A program made the position numbers and the translations under genes. DNA of 64,000 nucleotides, taken from positions 620,001-684,000 of the forward strand of contig JASTWF010000098.1 in NCBI GenBank assembly GCA_030390025.1. The letters are read 5' to 3'. Numbering within the stretch: position 1 is the first letter of the stretch; the number at the start of each line of letters is the position of its first letter. Under the pieces are notes generated by a model. That model ran no database searches and was not told where the DNA came from. It worked only from the letters and a program-made list of their open reading frames with translations. This document shows, one piece after another, positions 1 to 64,000 of the stretch. The stretch comes from Squalus acanthias. Taxonomy: Eukaryota.

Positions 1-189
1 ACAGTTAATCTTTCTGACTGCCTTTTATCACACCTCGGCAGAGAAACAATCAGGTCAGGAAGGCATTATATCAAAGACATAGCAAGATACAGCTAAGACA
101 ATGAGGTGGGGTCACGGGGGGTCGAATGTGTCAAATGCAGTCTGTATGGAAAGCCATAAACTTTAAAATTTTTACTTTTTTTTACTGGA

Positions 190-373
190 AATCACATCTG
201 TGAACAAGCCAACGACGACTCGAGTCTGGATGACTCTACGTCATGTAGCGTGACATGAACCCAAGATCCCGGTTGAGGCCGTCCTCATGGGTGCGGAACT
301 TGGCTATCAGTTTCTGCTCGATGATTTTGCGTTGTCGTGTGTCTCGAAGGCCGCCTTGGAGAATGCTTACCCG
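190..373 (-). mobile_element. Penelope-like element fragment (GIY-YIG C-terminus and degenerate pLTR)
   Basis: 373-236 translates RVSILQGGLRDTRQRKIIEQKLIAKFRTHEDGLNRDLGFMSRYMT*, typical of a PLE ORF end. Confidence 0.8.
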
Positions 374-14992: not shown

Positions 14993-16685
14993 GGTATTAA
15001 TCTTCCAGAATTCCCTAGATTCTAGAACAGTCTCCAAGGATTGGAAAGTAGCAAACATAAACCCGCTATTTAAGAAAGGAGGAAGAAAAAACGGGGAACT
15101 ATAGGCCAGTTAGCCTGACTTCAGTACTAGGCAAAATGCTAGAATCTATTATTAGGGATGTGGTAACAGGGCACTTAGAAAATTGTTATGTGATTAGGCA
15201 GCGTCAACATGGTTTTATGAAAGGGAAATCATGTTTGATAAATCTGTTAATTTTTTGAAGATGTAACTAGTGGAACCAGTGGATGTAGTATATTTTGATT
15301 TTCAAAAAGCATTCGATAAGGTGCCACACAAAAGGTTATTACACAAAATTGGAACCTATGGGATTGGGGGTAATATACTAGCATGGATCGAGGATTGGTT
15401 AATGGACAGAAAACAGAGAGTAGGAATAAACGGGACTTTTTCGGGTTGGCAGGCTGTAACTTGCGGGAACCGCAAGGATCAGTGCTCGGGCCTCAGCTAT
15501 TTACAATCTACATTAATGACTTAGATGAAGGGACGTATCCAAGTTTGCTGATATAAAGTTATGGGAAGGTAAACTGTGAGGAGGACGCAAAGAGGCTGCA
15601 GAGAGATATAGACAGGTTGACTGAGTAGGCAAGAGCATGGCAAATGGAATACAATGTGGGGAAGTGAGAAATTATCCACTTTGGTAGGTAAAACAAAAAA
15701 GCAGAATATTTTTTGAATGGCGAGAGACTGGGAAATGTCTGCATTCAGAAGGACCTGGGTGTCCTGGTACATGAATTACAGAAAGTTAACATTCAGGTAC
15801 AGCCAGCAATTAGGAAAGCAAATGGTATGTTAGCTTTTGTCACAAAGGGATTAGAGTACAAGAGTAAAGAAGTCTTACTACAATTATATAGGGCATTGGT
15901 GAGGCCACACCTGGAGTACTGTGTACAGTTCTGGTCTCTCTACCTAAGGAAAAAATGTGAAGTCGCACAACACCAGGTTATAGTCCAACAGTTTTATTTG
16001 AAATCACAAGCTTTCGGAGCGCTGCTCCTTCGTCAGGTGAAGTGAAGAAAAGGAGCAGAGCTCCGAAAGCTTGTGATTTCAAATAAAACTGTTGGACTAT
16101 AACCTGGTGTTGTGCGACTTCTCACATTTGTCCACCCCAGTCCAACACCGGCATCTCCACATCATACCTAAGGAAAGACATACTTGCCTTTAGAGGGAGT
16201 GCAACGAAGGTTCACTAGACTGGTTCCTGGGATGAGATGGTTGCCCTATGAGGAGATTGAGTAGACTAGGCCTATATTCCCTAGAATTTAGAAGAATGAG
16301 AGGTGATCTCATTGAAACATATAAAATTCTTAAGGCACTTGACAGGGTTAATGCTGTGAAAATGTTTCCCCTGGCTGGGGAATCTAGAACACGGGGTCAC
16401 AGTCTCAGAATAAGAGGTCGGCCATTTAGGACTGAGATGAGAAATTTCTTCACTGAGGGTTGTGAATTTTTGGAATTCTCTATCCCAGAGAGCTGTGGAT
16501 GCTCAGTTGTTGAGTATATTCAGAACAGAGGTCGATAAATTTTTGGGAACTAAGGGAATCAAGGGATATGGGGATAGTGCAGGAAAGTGGAGTTGAGGTA
16601 GAAGATCAGCCATGATCTTATTGAATGGCGGAGCAGGCTCGAGGGGCCGAATGGCCGACTCCTGCTCCTAATTCTTATGTTCTTT
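14993..16685 (+). mobile_element. CR1 LINE RT fragment interrupted by a Penelope mini-element
   Basis: DFQKAFDKVPH, RPHLEYC, RGDLIETYK; tail ttcttatgttct. Confidence 0.92.
15953..16164. mobile_element. Penelope-like inverted-pLTR mini-element with hammerhead ribozyme (intact on - strand)
   Basis: 12-bp TSD tacctaaggaaa (15941-15952, 16165-16176); long inverted repeat; - strand tcac-CTGACGA-a-ggagc/gctcc-GAAAG-CTT-gtga. Confidence 0.85.
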
Positions 16686-30501: not shown

Positions 30502-31531
30502 GTATTCTACGAATTCCCGATGACTGATGTTTTTTTTTCATTTTGAGAGAGAAAACTTGTACAAAGAGAAAGGATTGGTCTGTTGATGGCTAGCTGGTTT
30601 CCTTAACAGAATCTGGTACATTTGGTACTGGCACTAATTTGCTTTCTTTTCAGTTGGAAGGAGATGCTGGAATCCCATTGCGCCTGCGCGCGCTGCAAAT
30701 TTTAGTTTGTATATGTCTTTCACAAAAATGTTCCTTTGCAGGTCGCGCAGCGTTTTCTCAGCGCCTGCGCTAGCGCCGCTTGCTTGCTTTGGTCTCGAAG
30801 TTCCATGAACAACCATGACCACGTTATGAAGTGAATATTCAGCCTCTAAAGTGTGGGCGGGGTGGTGGGGGGAAGAGAATGCACAAGGGTTTCTGACTTT
30901 AAACTGAAGTGAAATTTTGCTGGCCTTGTCGAATGGGAGGGATGACGGAGGAGAAAGATCAGTTTTGACTGAATACTGCTGAATCTTCCTGGTTTTGCTG
31001 AAATGTTCATGGAGTTTCGCTGCGCTGTTTTTCTTTTCTCCCCTACAGGTGCTTTTGCGCGCAGCCTGCGAAACCGCGCTTGCGAAGAAGCTCAGGATGC
31101 ACGGCTTCATCAGCCAGTTAACCCTCTCCAGACCAAACCTCCTCCCCGAAAATTCCTTTCCCCCTGCCCTCCCCCTCAGAAGAGTTCATTTGGCTTTTTA
31201 AAAAAAACCTCTTAAAACGCACACATTTTGCATAGTAAGTACATTAGTTTATATCCTGACTTGTTTGCTGCCGTAGATACTGGTCGGCATTTGGTGTCGT
31301 TTTAAAGTGTAAAATGTAGCCCTTTACAGAAATGAGCGGTTTCCCACTTAAAAAGAAAACTAGGAACTTTTTTAAAAATTGTTTCCTTCTGCTTGTTAAA
31401 CTGTGGTTGCTTTACACGGTGCCTTCAGTAGCAAATGAGTTCGAAATTGGAAAGGTATGTTGTGTGGAGCAGATGTTGGTGTCCAGACTCTGAAGTAGAG
31501 CTGTACTGACTAAGCTGTTTGTTCTTCACAG

Positions 31532-31636
31532 CGTTTGTTGCCAATTGAGGGGGCAAATGACCTCTTCTACCAGCCACCACCACCCATGCCTACCTCAAAA
31601 GTATACGCAATCAGGCCATACTTTCCAAAAGACGAG
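31532..31636 (+). CDS. OGA: OGA exon 12 ([35 protein letters not shown])
   Basis: ttcacag|CGTTTG...GAG|gtacgt. Confidence 0.96.
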
Positions 31637-34600
31637 GTACGTTTACTAACTTGTGTATCTGAATAAAGTTGCTATTGAAATGCTCTTAACTTTGAAATTT
31701 AGTTTTTATGTGTGCTAATGTAAACTTGAACAAACTAAATTTTATTCAGGTTGCAATATGTTCGATATACATCAAAATAACCCACCCCCAGTAGCCAACC
31801 GTGAAACTTGGTATTGAAGTCGGTCACAACTTCACATGTGGTTACTGTTGTTTGGCCAGATCCCTGTCATAGAACCATAGAGGTTTGCAGCACAGAAGGA
31901 GGCTATTCGCCCCGTGGTGTCTGTGCTAGAGCATCCAAAACGAATCCTCCTACCTTGATCTCTCCCTATAGCCCTATATCTTCCTCTGCTTCAAATATTT
32001 ATCCAATATTCCTTTGAGAAGCCATGCTCCACCACTCCCTGTGGCATAGCATCCAAAAATCCTCTGTTAATTTTCTCCTAACTTCTTTCCTTACTGATAC
32101 TTTTAAATTGCTAACTCCCTTATTACTGTCGCTCCAACCAGAAGAAGTTTTATTTCCCTATTCATTGCCATCCAAACACTTCATAATTTTACCAACTTCC
32201 ATTAAATCTCCTCTTGGCCACCTCTGCTCCTGTGGAAATAGTCCCAGTATCACGAGTCTCCCCTCAAAGCCTCACCCACACTCTTCCTTCACCATCAGTT
32301 GCTAAATCAGGAGTGGGAGCATTTTTGTTTGTATAGGGATGCAGAGTCAAATTGTAAACCTTGGTTCTATTAAACATTTGAAGCAGAGGAAGGTGCAGAG
32401 TTATGGAGAGAGGGGAAATGGGATTAATTTTAGATTTCTCGAGCAAAAGAAAGACTTGCATTTCTACAGCGCCTTTCACGAGCACCGGACGTCCCAAAGT
32501 GTTTACAGCCAATGAAGTACTTTTTGAAGTGCAGTCACTGTTGTAATGTTGGAAACCAAAGACCTGGCACAGATGCATTAAGCCATATGGCTTCCTTCTG
32601 TGCTGTAAGCGTCTGTGGTTCTTGCTGCAGTGACTGCACTGGCTGAATAAAATCTGGAATGATCCTGACCTGTAAGCTGGGGGCATCATCGGACAGGTTT
32701 CTGGTATGCTGTTGCTCATCAGTATCCGAGATTACTGTGTTTAGGTTCATCAAGGGAACAGATGTGCATTGTCGGCTGGTTTGCAGTCTGTATATGTGAA
32801 AGATCTAGCACCCTGATTTAAGCCATGCAGGCTTATCTTTTTGTCCTGTTAGTATCTGAAATAAATCTCTTTCTGAATGTAGATATCCTCGACTCCTATT
32901 TTGGTAAGGAGCAAAATCGTATGGTTTGCTTTGGCAGGACTTCTGACTCTCTGTACCTTTTGAAACAAACCAAGTGGATGAGTCGCCTGCTCTCTTGTCT
33001 CCAGTGATTGATGGTTATTCTGCACAACAGAATAGTGATTTCCAGGTAAAAGAATCTGGGAACCTGGAATGTTATGGGATGAAGGATTTGTCCTCCAGGG
33101 TATCGCTCAGGCAGAAATCACCACTGATATCAAACTTACCAAGTGAATTCATATCAGATTGGACAGCTACAGTCATCCTTTCAAGAATTGAGACCCTGGT
33201 CTTTGTTGCAGTGACTCTGGTACCTACGCAGGAACCCACCTCTGTTGAAATCACTTCTTCGGGCTGGTCTGCCAGTCTCTGGATATTGGATCATTGGACA
33301 TCTCGTTCAGATTATTGCAAACACTTTGTCAGCATTAAGGTTGAGAGCCTTGTCTGATTTAAGAGCAGGCATGCCATGAATTAGCTCTTTCTGCCGGTCA
33401 CCGGACTAAAAGGTTTGGACCATGGCAGGGTTACTTTCCAAATATATCTCTGGCTGCAGTCAAGTGCCAACATTCTGGCAATGGTTTCTAAAGACCCTAA
33501 AAGGAGTCATTTAGTACTTGAGTTTTCTAATAGAACTGATTAAAAGATTACTTTGGTGTTTCCCGAATTGGGAACAGGGAGATAGTCTTGGGGGTTTGTG
33601 AATTTGCTTAAGAATTCTTTTCCTAGCCCTCAATTACTTGAGGCTCCTTTCCACCTGAGAGATACTTCAACACTACTTCAATTCTCCTGGTATGTTTGGA
33701 ATTGCATGGATGCAGTCATGATTAGGACAGGAGGCATGGGAGTATCCTGGGCCCAGACCTAGTGAAAGATTCTGCAGGTACTGTTCCTTAATCCTGTCTA
33801 GTGCCTTGCAGGGTCAGAGGATGTACCAGTTCCTCTGCGTAGGGGTAAGAGGTTTCCTTTCATTGTATAGATGGGATAATATCAAACAATAAACATACTG
33901 AAGGAGAAAAAATGGCAAGGTTGTCCCTTAGATCAGATCTAAGTTAGCATGTCTACTATAGACAACCCATTTAACAGTCTGGGGAACAATTCTGCCGGCT
34001 TCGTTGCTCTGCAATATCTAACCAAGTCCCATGCTGCATACCTTTGACTAGCTCTCTGCCTTGGCATGACATTCCATGATCCCTGTACTCATGGCATTTG
34101 ATCAGTTATTATCCATGTTTCTAGAGGTACTAATGGGCACGTTATCTGCTTCAGTTGGGAGTTTATTCTACGTATTCACCATTTTGTGGTGAAAAATTCC
34201 TGCTAACATTCTTGCTTTGAGTTAACTATAAAATAAGCCTAGCTGTTTTGTGCCCTTTGTAGTATTGCCTTAATGCCCTTCTCCCATTCCCCAGTACATT
34301 GGCAGATTGTTGCCCTCATGGGATTCAAATCTGGCAATATTTGAACAGTTGTCTGTTGCCAGCTCAGCTGGGCTCCAAGAATCGGTGTAAGATGATCCCA
34401 GCTGTTCAATATTGGTCTTGTCTTGCTATCCTCCTTGATCTCTTCCTGAGAGTGAGATGAAAGTGGTGAAACTATTAACTGCTGGAAAGCTGAGGTCCCA
34501 CACCAGAAGTTTTATCAGTGTGCAAAGGAATTTGGATAAATCAAGATTAAGACCAAGTTTAGCATTCCTTTCGTTGGTTTTAATTGGCATCACTGCCAAT

Positions 34601-34752
34601 TCAAATGGAAAAACTCATTAACCAATAGAGCTTCTGTTGTCACATTTAATTATGAAGTTGCTAACTCAACCATGTCCATCTTTACACTTCTGGGATTCCT
34701 TTTTTGCTGACAATGCCATTGGAGCTTTTTTAAATATGCCCTTCTCTACTTA

Positions 34753-34973
34753 TGTGAGAAGTCGCACAACACCAGGTTATAGTCCAACAGCTTTATTTGA
34801 AATCACAAGCTTTCGGAGTGCTGCTCCTTCGTCAGGTGAAGTCTTCACCTGACGAAGGAGCAGCGCTCCGAAAGCTTGTGATTTCAAATAAAGCTGTTGG
34901 ACTATAACCTGGTGTTGTGCGACTTCTCACATTTGTCCACCCCAGTCCAACACCGGCATCTCCACATCATGGG
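34753..34973. mobile_element. Penelope-like inverted-pLTR mini-element, hammerhead motif on both strands
   Basis: 11-bp TSD ttctctactta (34742-34752, 34974-34984); 90-bp inverted arms with a 1-nt spacer. Confidence 0.88.
34845..34881 (+). ncRNA. Minimal type I hammerhead ribozyme motif (PLE-associated)
   Basis: Stem I tcac/gtga; CUGACGA; stem II ggagc/gctcc; GAAAG-CUU palindromic helix III. Confidence 0.75.
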
Positions 34974-36851
34974 TTCTCTACTTAGTTACAGGAGATTTAT
35001 TTCTTGAATTTCCATCATCTTCAACGCAGTCCTCTTGCCAATCACTACTCAACATCCGTGTTCCTTGGACCTTCTAACCCAATGGTGGACTGATCTATAA
35101 CAGCTGGTTGCAGGGAGATAGACTGGGGCGGGGGAAATTGTGAATTTGCGCAAGAATGCCTCTTCCAGCCCTCAATTACTTGAGGCTCCTTTTTACCTGA
35201 GACACTTGGACACTACTTCAATTCTCCTGCTATATTTGGAATTGCATGGATTAGTCTGGGCCTAAACCCAGTAGGTGCTGTAGGTCACTGTTCCTTAATC
35301 CTGGCTAGTGCCTTACTGGTTTAGAGGATGCACCAGTTCTACTGCATGAGGGTAAGGTGGTTTCCTTTCATTGTGATTTGCAGTTTGGAGAGAACCAAAT
35401 CTGTATAGTTGAAACTTATCAACAGCTATGGATATGGTGTTAACCCAGTCTCTCAATTAATGTGTTGCCATATTAGTCCTTTACAAAATTGAGATTGGAG
35501 TAGGACCATGTGTTTTTTTTCACCCTCACCCGTGCCATTTTTCTCCCGTTCTTGTGGAAAACATTGAGTCTGTGCTAGGGTCCAGCTCAATAGACATTGG
35601 GCATCTTGATACATTGGCAAAGTGACCATTATTTGTGTGTGAATCTTGAATGGTGAATATTGGCACCATAGCAAAGCTTGGCCATTTTCTCACCTGAAAT
35701 ACATACATGGGCACAAGCACTTCTATTGGCTCTTAACTCGAGGAACTTTGGAAGAAAGAACCATGGCTGATTTTTGTGTCTCCCTCCCCCTCCCATAAAC
35801 TAATGATGTGCGATGAATTGTGACGCCCCCTTACTATCACTCGAGCTGAGATCATCCAACTCATCCTAGACCAGGGAGTGAAGCCGGCACCTTTCTGGTC
35901 GATGTGGCTCTGTAATTCCCTGGATAAACTTAAGTCTTTGTTTCTGCTAGGTCGATGAGCTGCTACAGTTTTACCTCAGTATGGAATAGCAGCAGAATTC
36001 TCCCCACTGAGGCTCATTCCCAGATGGTGCTTTCACTGGAACTTTGAGCTTCTGACTGCAAGGGATAAATGCAGCTTTCATGCCTGTTGCACCAGTCGGA
36101 GCTTCAGAGCGATGCAAATTCTTCTCTCTACTTAGCAGCCAGCGACCTTTTCATGAGACTTCTATTCTGGTTTTTATTGGTTACCTCCAACATCATTTCA
36201 TTGAAGTCACCTTAACCCCACACAAGTGGGTGAAGATAGCATTCTGCATGATCACTGGCTGCTATTTAAGGCACCTTAAAGCCTGGCCTTGGTGTATCTG
36301 CAAAGACACCACGCGCTTTCACTGAGTCCACCTTCCCCACCTGGAAGGCCGTAGTTTGACAGAACAGTACTTGTACCTGTGTACAATATAGCAAATGAAG
36401 ATTTAGTATATTCCTGCCCTTCAATTTAAATTAAGTTATACTTAATGTATCCTACCTTTTATCTGAGTTAGCCTTGTTGGACATTCTCATGGCAGATTAC
36501 TTACAGGAGATGCGTTTCTCAGTAGGTACTAGATTTTGATCTCCCTTTCAGTTAAAGTGCAAATAGGATTTGGTTGGTCTCACCAGGAGCCCTGAAAGTG
36601 AACCCCAGTTCCACCAGCTATTTGATTAGAACCAGCCCAGTTTGGTTGCCAGTCGGTAGAATGAGTAATGTGACACTCCAAAGAGATGGCTCTTGGTGTC
36701 TTTGTGATTCACCCTGTCTAATGTCCATGTCACCAGAAACCCAAGCATAAAATGTATGCTTGTCGTGTGTTTATCAGGGACGGTTCCACTGTATTAATGC
36801 ATACTCTGCGCGCTGAAGTACTCTATTAGCCAGGTTTGCTTTTCTCCACAG

Positions 36852-36940
36852 GCCTCTGTGTACAAGATCTGTAAGGAGATGTATGATGATGAAATGGATG
36901 GTGACTCAATGTCTTATCAGCCGGATATCATTGGTGACAG
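36852..36940 (+). CDS. OGA: OGA exon 13 (ASVYKICKEMYDDEMDGDSMSYQPDIIGD)
   Basis: ccacag|GCCTCT...GACAG|gtgagt. Confidence 0.95.
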
Positions 36941-36977
36941 GTGAGTGTACAGAGAGATGGCATTTTGTGTGTGTTGA

Positions 36978-37121
36978 GGGGGGAGGGGGGGGGGAGGGGG
37001 GGGGGGGGGGGGGGGGAGGGGGGGGGGGGGGGGGGGGAGGGGGGAGGGGGGGGGGGGAGGCGGGGGGGGGGGGGGAGGCGGGGGGGGGGGGGGAGGCGGG
37101 GGGGGGGGGGGGGGGGGGCGG
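36978..37121 (+). repeat. Poly-G low-complexity tract
   Basis: About 140 nt of G runs with single A/C spacers. Confidence 0.95.
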
Positions 37122-37146
37122 AAGGAAGGAAGGGCTACCTATTTTC

Positions 37147-37236
37147 TCCTCATCTTGATTGCTTTACGGCTTCTGCTGGGGTCTAGTTCTGGCTTCTGCT
37201 GGGGTCTAGTTCCGGCTTCTGCTGGGGTCTAGTTCC
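37147..37236. repeat. Short tandem repeat ggcttctgctggggtctagttc(c/t), about 3 copies
   Basis: Direct inspection. Confidence 0.85.
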
Positions 37237-62745: not shown

Positions 62746-63337
62746 CTGAGACCGGCGCTCGCTCCCTCCGATCCCGGACAGGAGGCCCATTCCCTATTTA
62801 TGCTGCACAGTGAAGCGGGAACGACAGGCCCCACCCCCCTCCCCCGACGCACCGACATTCCTCAGGTTCGGCACTCCGTGGCCGGTGCGGCAGCTTCGAG
62901 CTGCTCGCTGTTCCCGTGACAACTGTCGGGGGCAGCTGTGCATGTGCGGGCATGCTCAGCAGGACCTGCCAATCACAGTTTGCCCCAGGGATCGGGGCGG
63001 GGAGGGGGAATCTGCAGTCCTGTGCATGTCTCTATTACACACCAGCTCTTAGCCGTGGGGACAGATTCCCTCATTGCTTCTTCTGCGCAAAATACTCCTG
63101 GGTCTCCCGACCAAGTTCAGTCGAAACCCTGGGATTTTGAGCCGTTTTGTTTTTCTCAGTGTCGCCTGTTCTGTAGCAGGGATTGGTTCATTTCCCGACA
63201 TTGCAACAGTGAGTACACTTCAACAACAACAAGTTGCATTTATATAGCACCTTTAACGTAGTAAAATGTCCCAAGGCGCTTCACAGGAGCGATTATCAGA
63301 CAAAATTTGACACCAAGCCACATAAGGAGATATTAGA

Positions 63338-64000
63338 AATAACAACAGAAAACGCTGGAAAAACTCAGCAGGCCAGGCAGCATCCGTGGAGAGAGAAAGA
63401 GAGTTGACGTTTCAGGTCGATGACCTTTCATCAGAACTGGGAAGAGCTGAAATCTCTTCCTATCTCGACTCTATTTTTTCTCCCCTTGTCCAGTCTCTTC
63501 CCACCTACATCCGCGACTCTTCCGATGCCCTCCGCCATTTTAACAGTTTCCAGTTTCCCGGCCCCAACCGTCTCCTCTTCACTATGGACGTACAATCCCT
63601 CTACACCTCCATTCCCCACCAAGATGGCCTGAGGGCGCTCCGCTTCTTCCTTGAACAGAGGCCCAACCAGTCCCCATCCACCACCACCCTCCTCCGCCTG
63701 GCTGAACTTGTTCTCACATTGAACAACTTCTCCTTTGACTCTACCCATTTCCTCCAAATTAAAGGTGTTGCTATGGGTACCCGCATGGGTCCTAGCTATG
63801 CCTGCCTTTTCGTGGGATATGTGGAACACTCTTTGTTCCAGTCCTACTCGGGTCCCCTCCCTCACCTCTTTTTCCGGTACATTGATGACTGTATCGGTGC
63901 CGTCTCCTGCTCTCGCCCTGAACTAGAACATTTCATTCACTATGCTTCCAATTTCCACCCTTCCCTCACCTTCACATGGTCCATCTCCGACTCTTCTCTT
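63338..64000 (+). mobile_element. Penelope-like retroelement: inverted pLTR, then RT ORF running off the window
   Basis: Open frame from 63452: ISSYLDSIFSPLVQSLPTYIRDS...TMDVQSLYTSI...KGVAMGTRMGPSYA...FRYIDD (63875-63889). Confidence 0.93.
63402..63438 (-). ncRNA. Minimal hammerhead ribozyme motif in an inverted Penelope pLTR
   Basis: agtt-CTGATGA-a-aggtc/gacct-GAAAC-GTC-aact. Confidence 0.72.

Follow-up and report, generated by a model that had tools for sequence, protein, structure and literature searches.

Intron 12 of the OGA gene of Squalus acanthias appears to hold a short palindromic insertion with a hammerhead ribozyme motif on each strand. It lies at positions 34742..34984 of the window, the whole stretch of 64,000 nucleotides that was analysed. 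The question raised by this locus is whether such ORF-less units form a mobile family of their own or are a recurring product of a larger element and, in the latter case, how two copies of the same sequence come to lie head to head.

OGA is encoded on the + strand; 15 exon hits were obtained when two shark OGA proteins were used as tblastn queries. The insertion lies between the exons which are the twelfth and thirteenth by count. It would be in intron 12, as an earlier note made from the sequence had it, provided that the unfound exon 1 lies upstream and that the 16-exon layout, which we take to be that of vertebrate OGA, holds. The closest named proteins, for OGA as well as for the transposon, are from sharks. 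Directly after exon 13 there is a low-complexity G-rich stretch (about 36900-37200), and from about 58740 onward the window contains arrays of a 33-bp tandem repeat with at least 77 overlapping copies. The features are as follows, with leader positions numbered from C3 of the hammerhead (34849 = 0):

15953..16165, + strand: second insertion of the same family, OGA intron 6, with a 12-bp target site duplication (TSD) at 15942-15953 / 16165-16176
31529..31663, + strand: exon 12 of OGA by count, upstream of the insertion (tblastn)
34742..34752, + strand: TSD, left copy, 11 bp
34752..34843, - strand: inverted arm without tail, parent leader from -7 (34842) to +83; 90/91 identity to the leader of the parent copy L347
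34803..34839, - strand: minimal type I hammerhead, with one mismatch closing helix II
34843..34932, + strand: direct arm, parent leader from -6 to +83
34845..34881, + strand: minimal type I hammerhead with UCAC/GUGA as helix I, its core at 34849-34855 and helix II at 34857-34869, plus GAAA and palindromic AGCU, in the layout of PMC4209133
34887..34892, + strand: AATAAA, a candidate poly(A) signal of the parent pLTR
34933..34972, + strand: 40-nt tail, ending just beyond the parent start codon (ATG 34969-34971)
34974..34984, + strand: TSD, right copy, preceded by one unmatched G (34973)
36849..36938, + strand: exon 13 of OGA by count, downstream of the insertion (tblastn)

The two arms (34752-34841 and 34843-34932) are 90 nt each, 99% complementary and 1 nt apart. 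Their sole mismatch, T34819 against G34865, is a U-G pair in the + RNA. The palindrome folds as RNA at -178.9 kcal/mol (z -28), and none of 200 shuffles is equally good. The 11-bp TSD TTCTCTACTTA is present at 34742-34752 and again at 34974-34984. Arms, mismatch, tail and TSD are thus confirmed as first described. The single base between the arms is also present, but it is likely to be the last templated base of the left arm rather than the 1-nt spacer that it was taken for. None of the 15 contig joints listed at the locus, out of 20, is an empty-site joint. Contigs aligned to the locus show no A>G difference within the element, which is uninformative on editing in a multicopy repeat.

Extension of longer copies upstream, and of the tail downstream, led to a parent unit of about 3.13 kb. 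The ORFs of 19 of 20 long candidates fetched are broken. L347 has an intact ORF of 891 aa with a reverse transcriptase (RT; Pfam RVT_1) containing YIDD, a linker CHGNLCKTC (CX4CxxC) and a C-terminal motif VYLI..C..C..WYIGET. Pfam scans of the parent gave no GIY-YIG hit; the nuclease is read from motifs, and several homologs carry PF01541. The parent has the features of EN+ Penelope-like elements: a single ORF with RT plus, at its C terminus, a GIY-YIG nuclease with CCHH (the nuclease by motifs), pLTRs flanking the ORF, a tail, an inverted 5' copy and a TSD. Neptune elements are defined, according to the available part of PMC8557442, by a CX2-5CxxC linker between RT and nuclease; this linker also occurs in Nematis. 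By the definitions of PMC8557442, the parent would be Neptune-like, a placement made by the linker motif.

Positions 34843-34972, the right arm plus tail, are identical to the upstream pLTR of L347 at 130/130 positions, which supports the proposed derivation from a Penelope-like element. Because this stretch is the L347 leader and the tail ends past the AUG, the mini-element amounts to the parent leader twice, head to head. The start of the L347 3' UTR (also in L130 and L157) holds a second, degenerate hammerhead-like motif without GAAA. It also holds sequence that resembles the 3' end of another Penelope family, so the UTR may be composite. Window positions 1-373 (- strand) are 78% identical to the parent ORF end and 3' UTR, and represent an older related element. 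A second subfamily (L191, L201, L217, L220, L250, L251, L262, L263) is near-identical from -7 downstream and diverged upstream.

The CUGACGA...GAAA core starts at 34849 on the + strand and at 34835 on the - strand; the + motif is presumably cut after 34877, as hammerhead numbering predicts. Core, helices I and II and a palindromic 15.2-16.2 are those of minimal type I hammerheads, and bear out the claim of one on each strand; on the - strand the closing pair of helix II is lost. The 51-nt + motif forms helix I with 4 bp and helix II with 5 bp, and shuffles fold as well (z -0.87). An Rfam scan at E<=1 found no hammerhead family; its weak hairpin (miRNA) matches, far below gathering score, were rejected as hairpin artefacts. 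The motifs resemble the type I hammerheads of metazoan Penelope-like elements in their short helix I, the extra base before helix II, the missing helix III loop and the palindromic 15.2-16.2 (PMC4209133). As far as that source is available, minimal hammerheads were inactive in vitro as monomers, and Schistosoma has opposite-strand hammerhead pairs 100-700 bp apart. In contrast, the shark motifs are 14 nt apart and mutually antisense, so they can form no same-strand dimer with each other. Within the full + RNA the computed pair probabilities of helices I and II are below 1e-17, and the antisense arm is transcribed first; the 90-bp duplex is therefore predicted to lock the + ribozyme in OGA pre-mRNA, as had been proposed. 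The silenced ribozyme is likely a by-product rather than a regulated switch. A hammerhead core from a different Penelope-like family is found elsewhere in the window, at 63434 (- strand, about 63320-63450).

Copies of the insertion are abundant. A first search with the unit returned 40 near-full-length matches at 98-100% among 2,287 candidates. A flanking repeat of at least 9 nt is present in 27 of 30 near-full-length matches examined, a set biased by the query. The exact 43-nt motif which joins arm end and tail has 6,218 genomic copies, the intron 12 junction has 231 exact copies, and 5 of 40 random 10-kb stretches held a family copy. The sample analysed consists of the first 90 tail-motif places on chromosome C1 in genome order, less 2 segmental duplicates (88 loci in the first 63 Mb of that chromosome); being drawn by exact motifs, it is biased toward young copies. 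An adjacent inverted arm is present at 64 of the 88 loci, with a flanking repeat of at least 9 nt in 58 of these. The 64 palindromes have 54 different junctions. That of intron 12 is found at 1 of the 88 loci, in the opposite orientation. Of 30 among its 231 copies, 8 have the tail on one side and 21 on the opposite side, and 1 lacks it; the junction also occurs on several subfamily backgrounds, in both arms.

These counts bear on the view that the palindromes make up a non-autonomous family of their own, similar to retrozymes or MITEs, in which the whole unit is transcribed and inserted again and the centre is thereby inherited. The 231 exact junction copies and the 40 near-full-length hits speak for it, as do local groups with a rare junction in common (below). 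Against it stand the 54 kinds of junction, the single occurrence of the intron 12 junction in the sample, and the appearance of this junction in both tail orientations and on several backgrounds; the fixed internal structure of a MITE- or SINE-like family is not seen across dispersed copies. Nor are there tandem arrays of the unit: a short direct tandem is found only in L118 among the 88 loci, with an ORF fragment. Non-LTR retrozymes are likewise ORF-less, pLTR-derived and hammerhead-bearing, but those described in the accessible part of bioRxiv 10.64898/2026.07.22.740005 are head-to-tail tandems of a defined monomer, whereas in the shark unit the pair is inverted, the centre varies and a TSD is present. 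In the data available from PMC11167929, moreover, the anole enzyme required an RNA that continues far beyond the tail, into the ORF, and such a stretch is missing from the mini-element. An independent family is unlikely and, for the family as a whole, largely refuted.

With variable junctions, and 231 copies of the intron 12 junction against 6,218 of the motif, the evidence points to a stereotyped product of insertion more than to a retrozyme-like mobile family. The earlier note had left the choice between a mobile family and a stereotyped truncation product to a comparison of junctions. The comparison speaks for a recurring product and against an independent mobile family; plain truncation does not stand either, given the promoter-like cluster of ends and the extra G described below. 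Its view of two near-identical units in OGA does not hold for their centres: the intron 6 copy has an asymmetric junction unlike that of intron 12, and a right arm without a complete hammerhead. One other genomic copy, L269 (G000:C64:1148469), has the intron 6 junction, with different flanks and the tail on the opposite arm.

Rare junctions are shared between neighbours at several places. One, which contains an insert of 2 nt, occurs 5 times in 3.7 Gb, each time at C1:12.2-14.9 Mb (L221-L225) and with different flanks; this cluster has three outer haplotypes and one copy with the tail on the other arm. At C1:3.43-3.98 Mb (L266-L268), two independent copies 0.53 Mb apart have a private variant in common. 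At C1:7.561-7.563 Mb, L317 and L318 lie 1.2 kb apart; they are alike in junction and arm asymmetry, and differ in TSD and outer variants. A seventh rare junction has 14 copies, of which 12 are dispersed and 2 lie 6.4 kb apart. Six further rare junctions are not local: two are single, others have 2, 17 and 5 dispersed copies, and that of the intron 6 insertion has its sister on another contig. Neighbouring insertions at C1:11.80-11.81 Mb (L207, L050) have a rare centre in common and differing outer ends.

The local cases were chosen because neighbours had been noticed within the sample. When 107 C1 junctions are permuted, 0.93 pairs of the same type are expected within 0.3 Mb and 4 are observed (p 0.014); without the two clusters, 0.84 are expected and 3 observed (p 0.05). 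For the intron 12 junction at 91 positions on C1-C6, from which tandem duplicates were removed by hand, there are 6 pairs within 0.3 Mb against 2.2 (p 0.02); the result is not significant at 1 or 3 Mb. Local sharing is not general, and its permutation support is marginal. Where it occurs, it implies that not every centre is built anew. The outer haplotypes of the five clustered copies are of three kinds. It is therefore likelier that a neighbour supplied the centre, through gene conversion or by serving as a bridge during insertion, than that whole units were re-mobilised; the haplotypes fit copying of the centre only, which again argues against an independent family.

The recurring product ends at a preferred base. 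Among 152 arm 5' ends, -7 is the exact position of 25, while 83 fall within -14..+7 and 44 lie beyond -30; single-arm copies likewise end around -7. Genome-wide, the 20-mer from -7 has 4,265 copies without the parental C at -8 against 14,837 with it, and part of the former belong to the second subfamily with T at -8 (5/6 T in the first 30 loci) or reflect point mutation. Position -7 is the A of TCACTTC, with TATATAT about 30 nt upstream, and the TATA-to--7 spacing is kept in two subfamilies despite differing intervening sequence. A rotifer pLTR has TATATATA plus an Inr-like TCACT, in the portion available of PMC3846280. A splice acceptor at -7 was considered and rejected, as no AG precedes it.

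Many joins at -7 also carry a base that the parent does not have. In the 71 arms that end at -7, the next base is G 47 times, A 14 times and T 10 times (parental C; 79 arms continuing upstream left out). Without natural microhomology, G is found in 26/37, or in 23/34 with one local cluster counted once; the latter excess has p 5e-5 against 1/3 and 1e-3 against 0.4. In five dispersed palindromes both arms are complete, with CG between them. L118, L294 and L300 are template jumps from -7 into ORF nt 73-74; they are non-palindromic and carry a G that is absent from both partners. Arms at -7 without a partner arm have G in just 6/14, which goes against the reading of an extra G. Reverse transcriptases can add an untemplated C at any template end, so an extra G is a safer sign of an RNA end than of a cap. 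We infer that -7 is an RNA 5' end, and most likely the capped start of a polymerase II transcript. Short partial tandems (L118, L285, L286, L292, L294, L297, L300) have the leader from near -7 behind the first 70-100 nt of the ORF. Their joins are mostly at ORF nt 73-82, which suggests a third preferred priming or landing site.

For the OGA intron 12 insertion, the left arm would then be complete, its extra base being the single base it has in common with the right arm: C34843 would be the extra G on the - strand and double as right-arm base.

It could instead be argued that -7 is a site of polymerase stalling or of processing at the edge of the folded hammerhead, even if the palindrome is otherwise formed from two primed cDNAs. 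Position -7 does lie 7 nt before the ribozyme core and just 3 nt before helix I, and the ends are spread over -14..+7. However, the TATA and Inr-like spacing is kept in two diverged subfamilies, the extra G is present, and no AG precedes -7. The ribozyme's own cut is at +29, where 240 arm ends are found against 95 at +26 and 157 at +32, the control positions. This modest enrichment is at most about twofold over neighbours, and microhomology explains part of it: 21 of the first 100 listed +29 ends are the helix I microhomology junction. Stalling or processing is accordingly held to be improbable, and a capped start is preferred.

The outer ends are also clustered: those of tail-less arms at about +82..+85, those of tailed arms at +120..+122; the tail ends at +120..+122 in 52 of 88 loci. 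The two clusters match, by analogy, the two internal start sites and both-strand nicking of the anole element: in vitro, both strands were nicked and extended, and two internal start sites bound the tail (PMC11167929, as far as available). Either arm may be the longer one (31 against 30, with 3 equal, in 64 palindromes), the tail-less arm sometimes by about 1 kb (L113, L137). At a subfamily marker, the arms agree in 88/98 pairs and differ in 10/98. Indels of the helix II loop were tried as lineage markers and discarded, being mostly confined to one arm. Unequal arms and marker differences fit two separately primed cDNAs, and fit self-priming poorly.

Self-priming, in which a single strand folds back on itself, has been proposed for rotifer elements with an antisense template (PMC3846280, in the part available); it would account for the head-to-head geometry and for the usual agreement of the arms at the marker. 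The junctions of L031, L151 and L160, with 5-nt complementarity, would also permit a hairpin. Yet the tail-less arm is longer in 30/64 palindromes, which is impossible for a folded-back tailed cDNA, and many junctions leave no room for a loop. The marker differs in a minority of pairs, and the extra G fits a sense RNA end. Self-priming is thus very improbable as the source of the inverted arm.

The insertion is quite probably made of two target-primed cDNAs of the parent leader, joined head to head at the landing site. From comparison of copies, the RNA would start at -7 from a TATA/Inr promoter in the pLTR, and the enzyme would nick both target strands 11-13 bp apart. Each cDNA would be primed at one of the two staggered nicks and copy the leader of about 127 nt. 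A start of the RT at about +83 would yield the tail-less cDNA, and one at about +121 (AUG) the tailed cDNA. Each cDNA would halt at the RNA 5' end, often gaining a C opposite the cap. The 3' ends would then be joined over 0-5 nt of microhomology, a single shared base in OGA intron 12. A minority of centres would be copied from a nearby palindrome, through gene conversion or during insertion. The hammerheads would ride along because they are located right behind the start site. Copies which extend far beyond -7 would require a template jump or a multimeric RNA. L1 twin priming also joins two nick-primed cDNAs by microhomology; there, the second primer is used at varied internal sites and the parts do not overlap, whereas both shark cDNAs copy the same stretch.

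The strong-stop DNA of LTR elements is a short, tRNA-primed cDNA ending at the capped 5' end. It is possible, and tentatively suggested here, that the pLTR is a true LTR, made up of a promoter section, a repeat that runs from the start site to beyond the AATAAA, and a downstream section that ends at the AUG. All insertions would then begin with strong-stop DNA, target-primed and copied from the 5' leader. Jumping to the 3' pLTR would give long copies and rebuild the promoter; two cDNAs which do not jump would join into palindromes, sometimes bridged by a palindrome up to megabases away.

That the host has selected a self-silenced ribozyme or dsRNA switch to regulate OGA is extremely improbable: the 90-bp hairpin predicted on the sense strand of the pre-mRNA and the two family members in OGA introns would suit it, but there are thousands of similar copies, the near identity with an intact parent points to a young insertion, and the locus shows no sign of conservation or of selection.

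The inverted pLTR, tail and TSD are already published as a layout (PMC3846280, PMC8557442). EN+ Penelope-like insertions have an inverted copy head to head with the pLTR, a tail of 30-40 bp at one end, a TSD of about 9-13 bp, and TATA plus TCACT in the pLTR, according to the sections available of both sources. They differ from the commonest shark product, which lacks an ORF and has a fixed terminal base plus an extra G. In the same sections, the origin of the inverted copy is left open or put down to self-priming. Anolis Poseidon (PAc) is similar in its both-strand nicking and in two internal start sites bounding the tail, and its hammerhead is dispensable for insertion (PMC11167929). It belongs to a different clade, the Cys linker being present in the shark element. 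The shark leader and tail lie upstream of the AUG, whereas the PAc start sites are inside the ORF, and the portion of PMC11167929 available does not describe palindromic run-off products. In a literature search, neither local junction sharing nor an extra G at a fixed 5' end was the subject of any paper listed, and searches on twin priming, on local hopping, on cap or untemplated bases and on shark Penelope hairpins returned nothing relevant. The family may already be catalogued in Repbase or Dfam, which were outside the search.

The single insertion in OGA is a real, ordinary member of a known insertion type. The family is useful since head-to-head repeat formation and pLTR rebuilding are stated as open in the available parts of PMC2377424, PMC8557442 and PMC3846280; fly Penelope has an internal TATA-less promoter, and no obvious mechanism for pLTR regeneration is given (PMC2377424). 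The shark genome offers thousands of young junctions, a start site predicted to the base and a natural intact copy in L347, by which twin priming and strong-stop transfer become directly testable. Local sharing of centres would imply unusually long-range copying between short palindromes. The joins likely record the start position of the element's RNA and, if the pLTR is a true LTR, the thousands of junctions would be a fossil record of the Penelope cycle.
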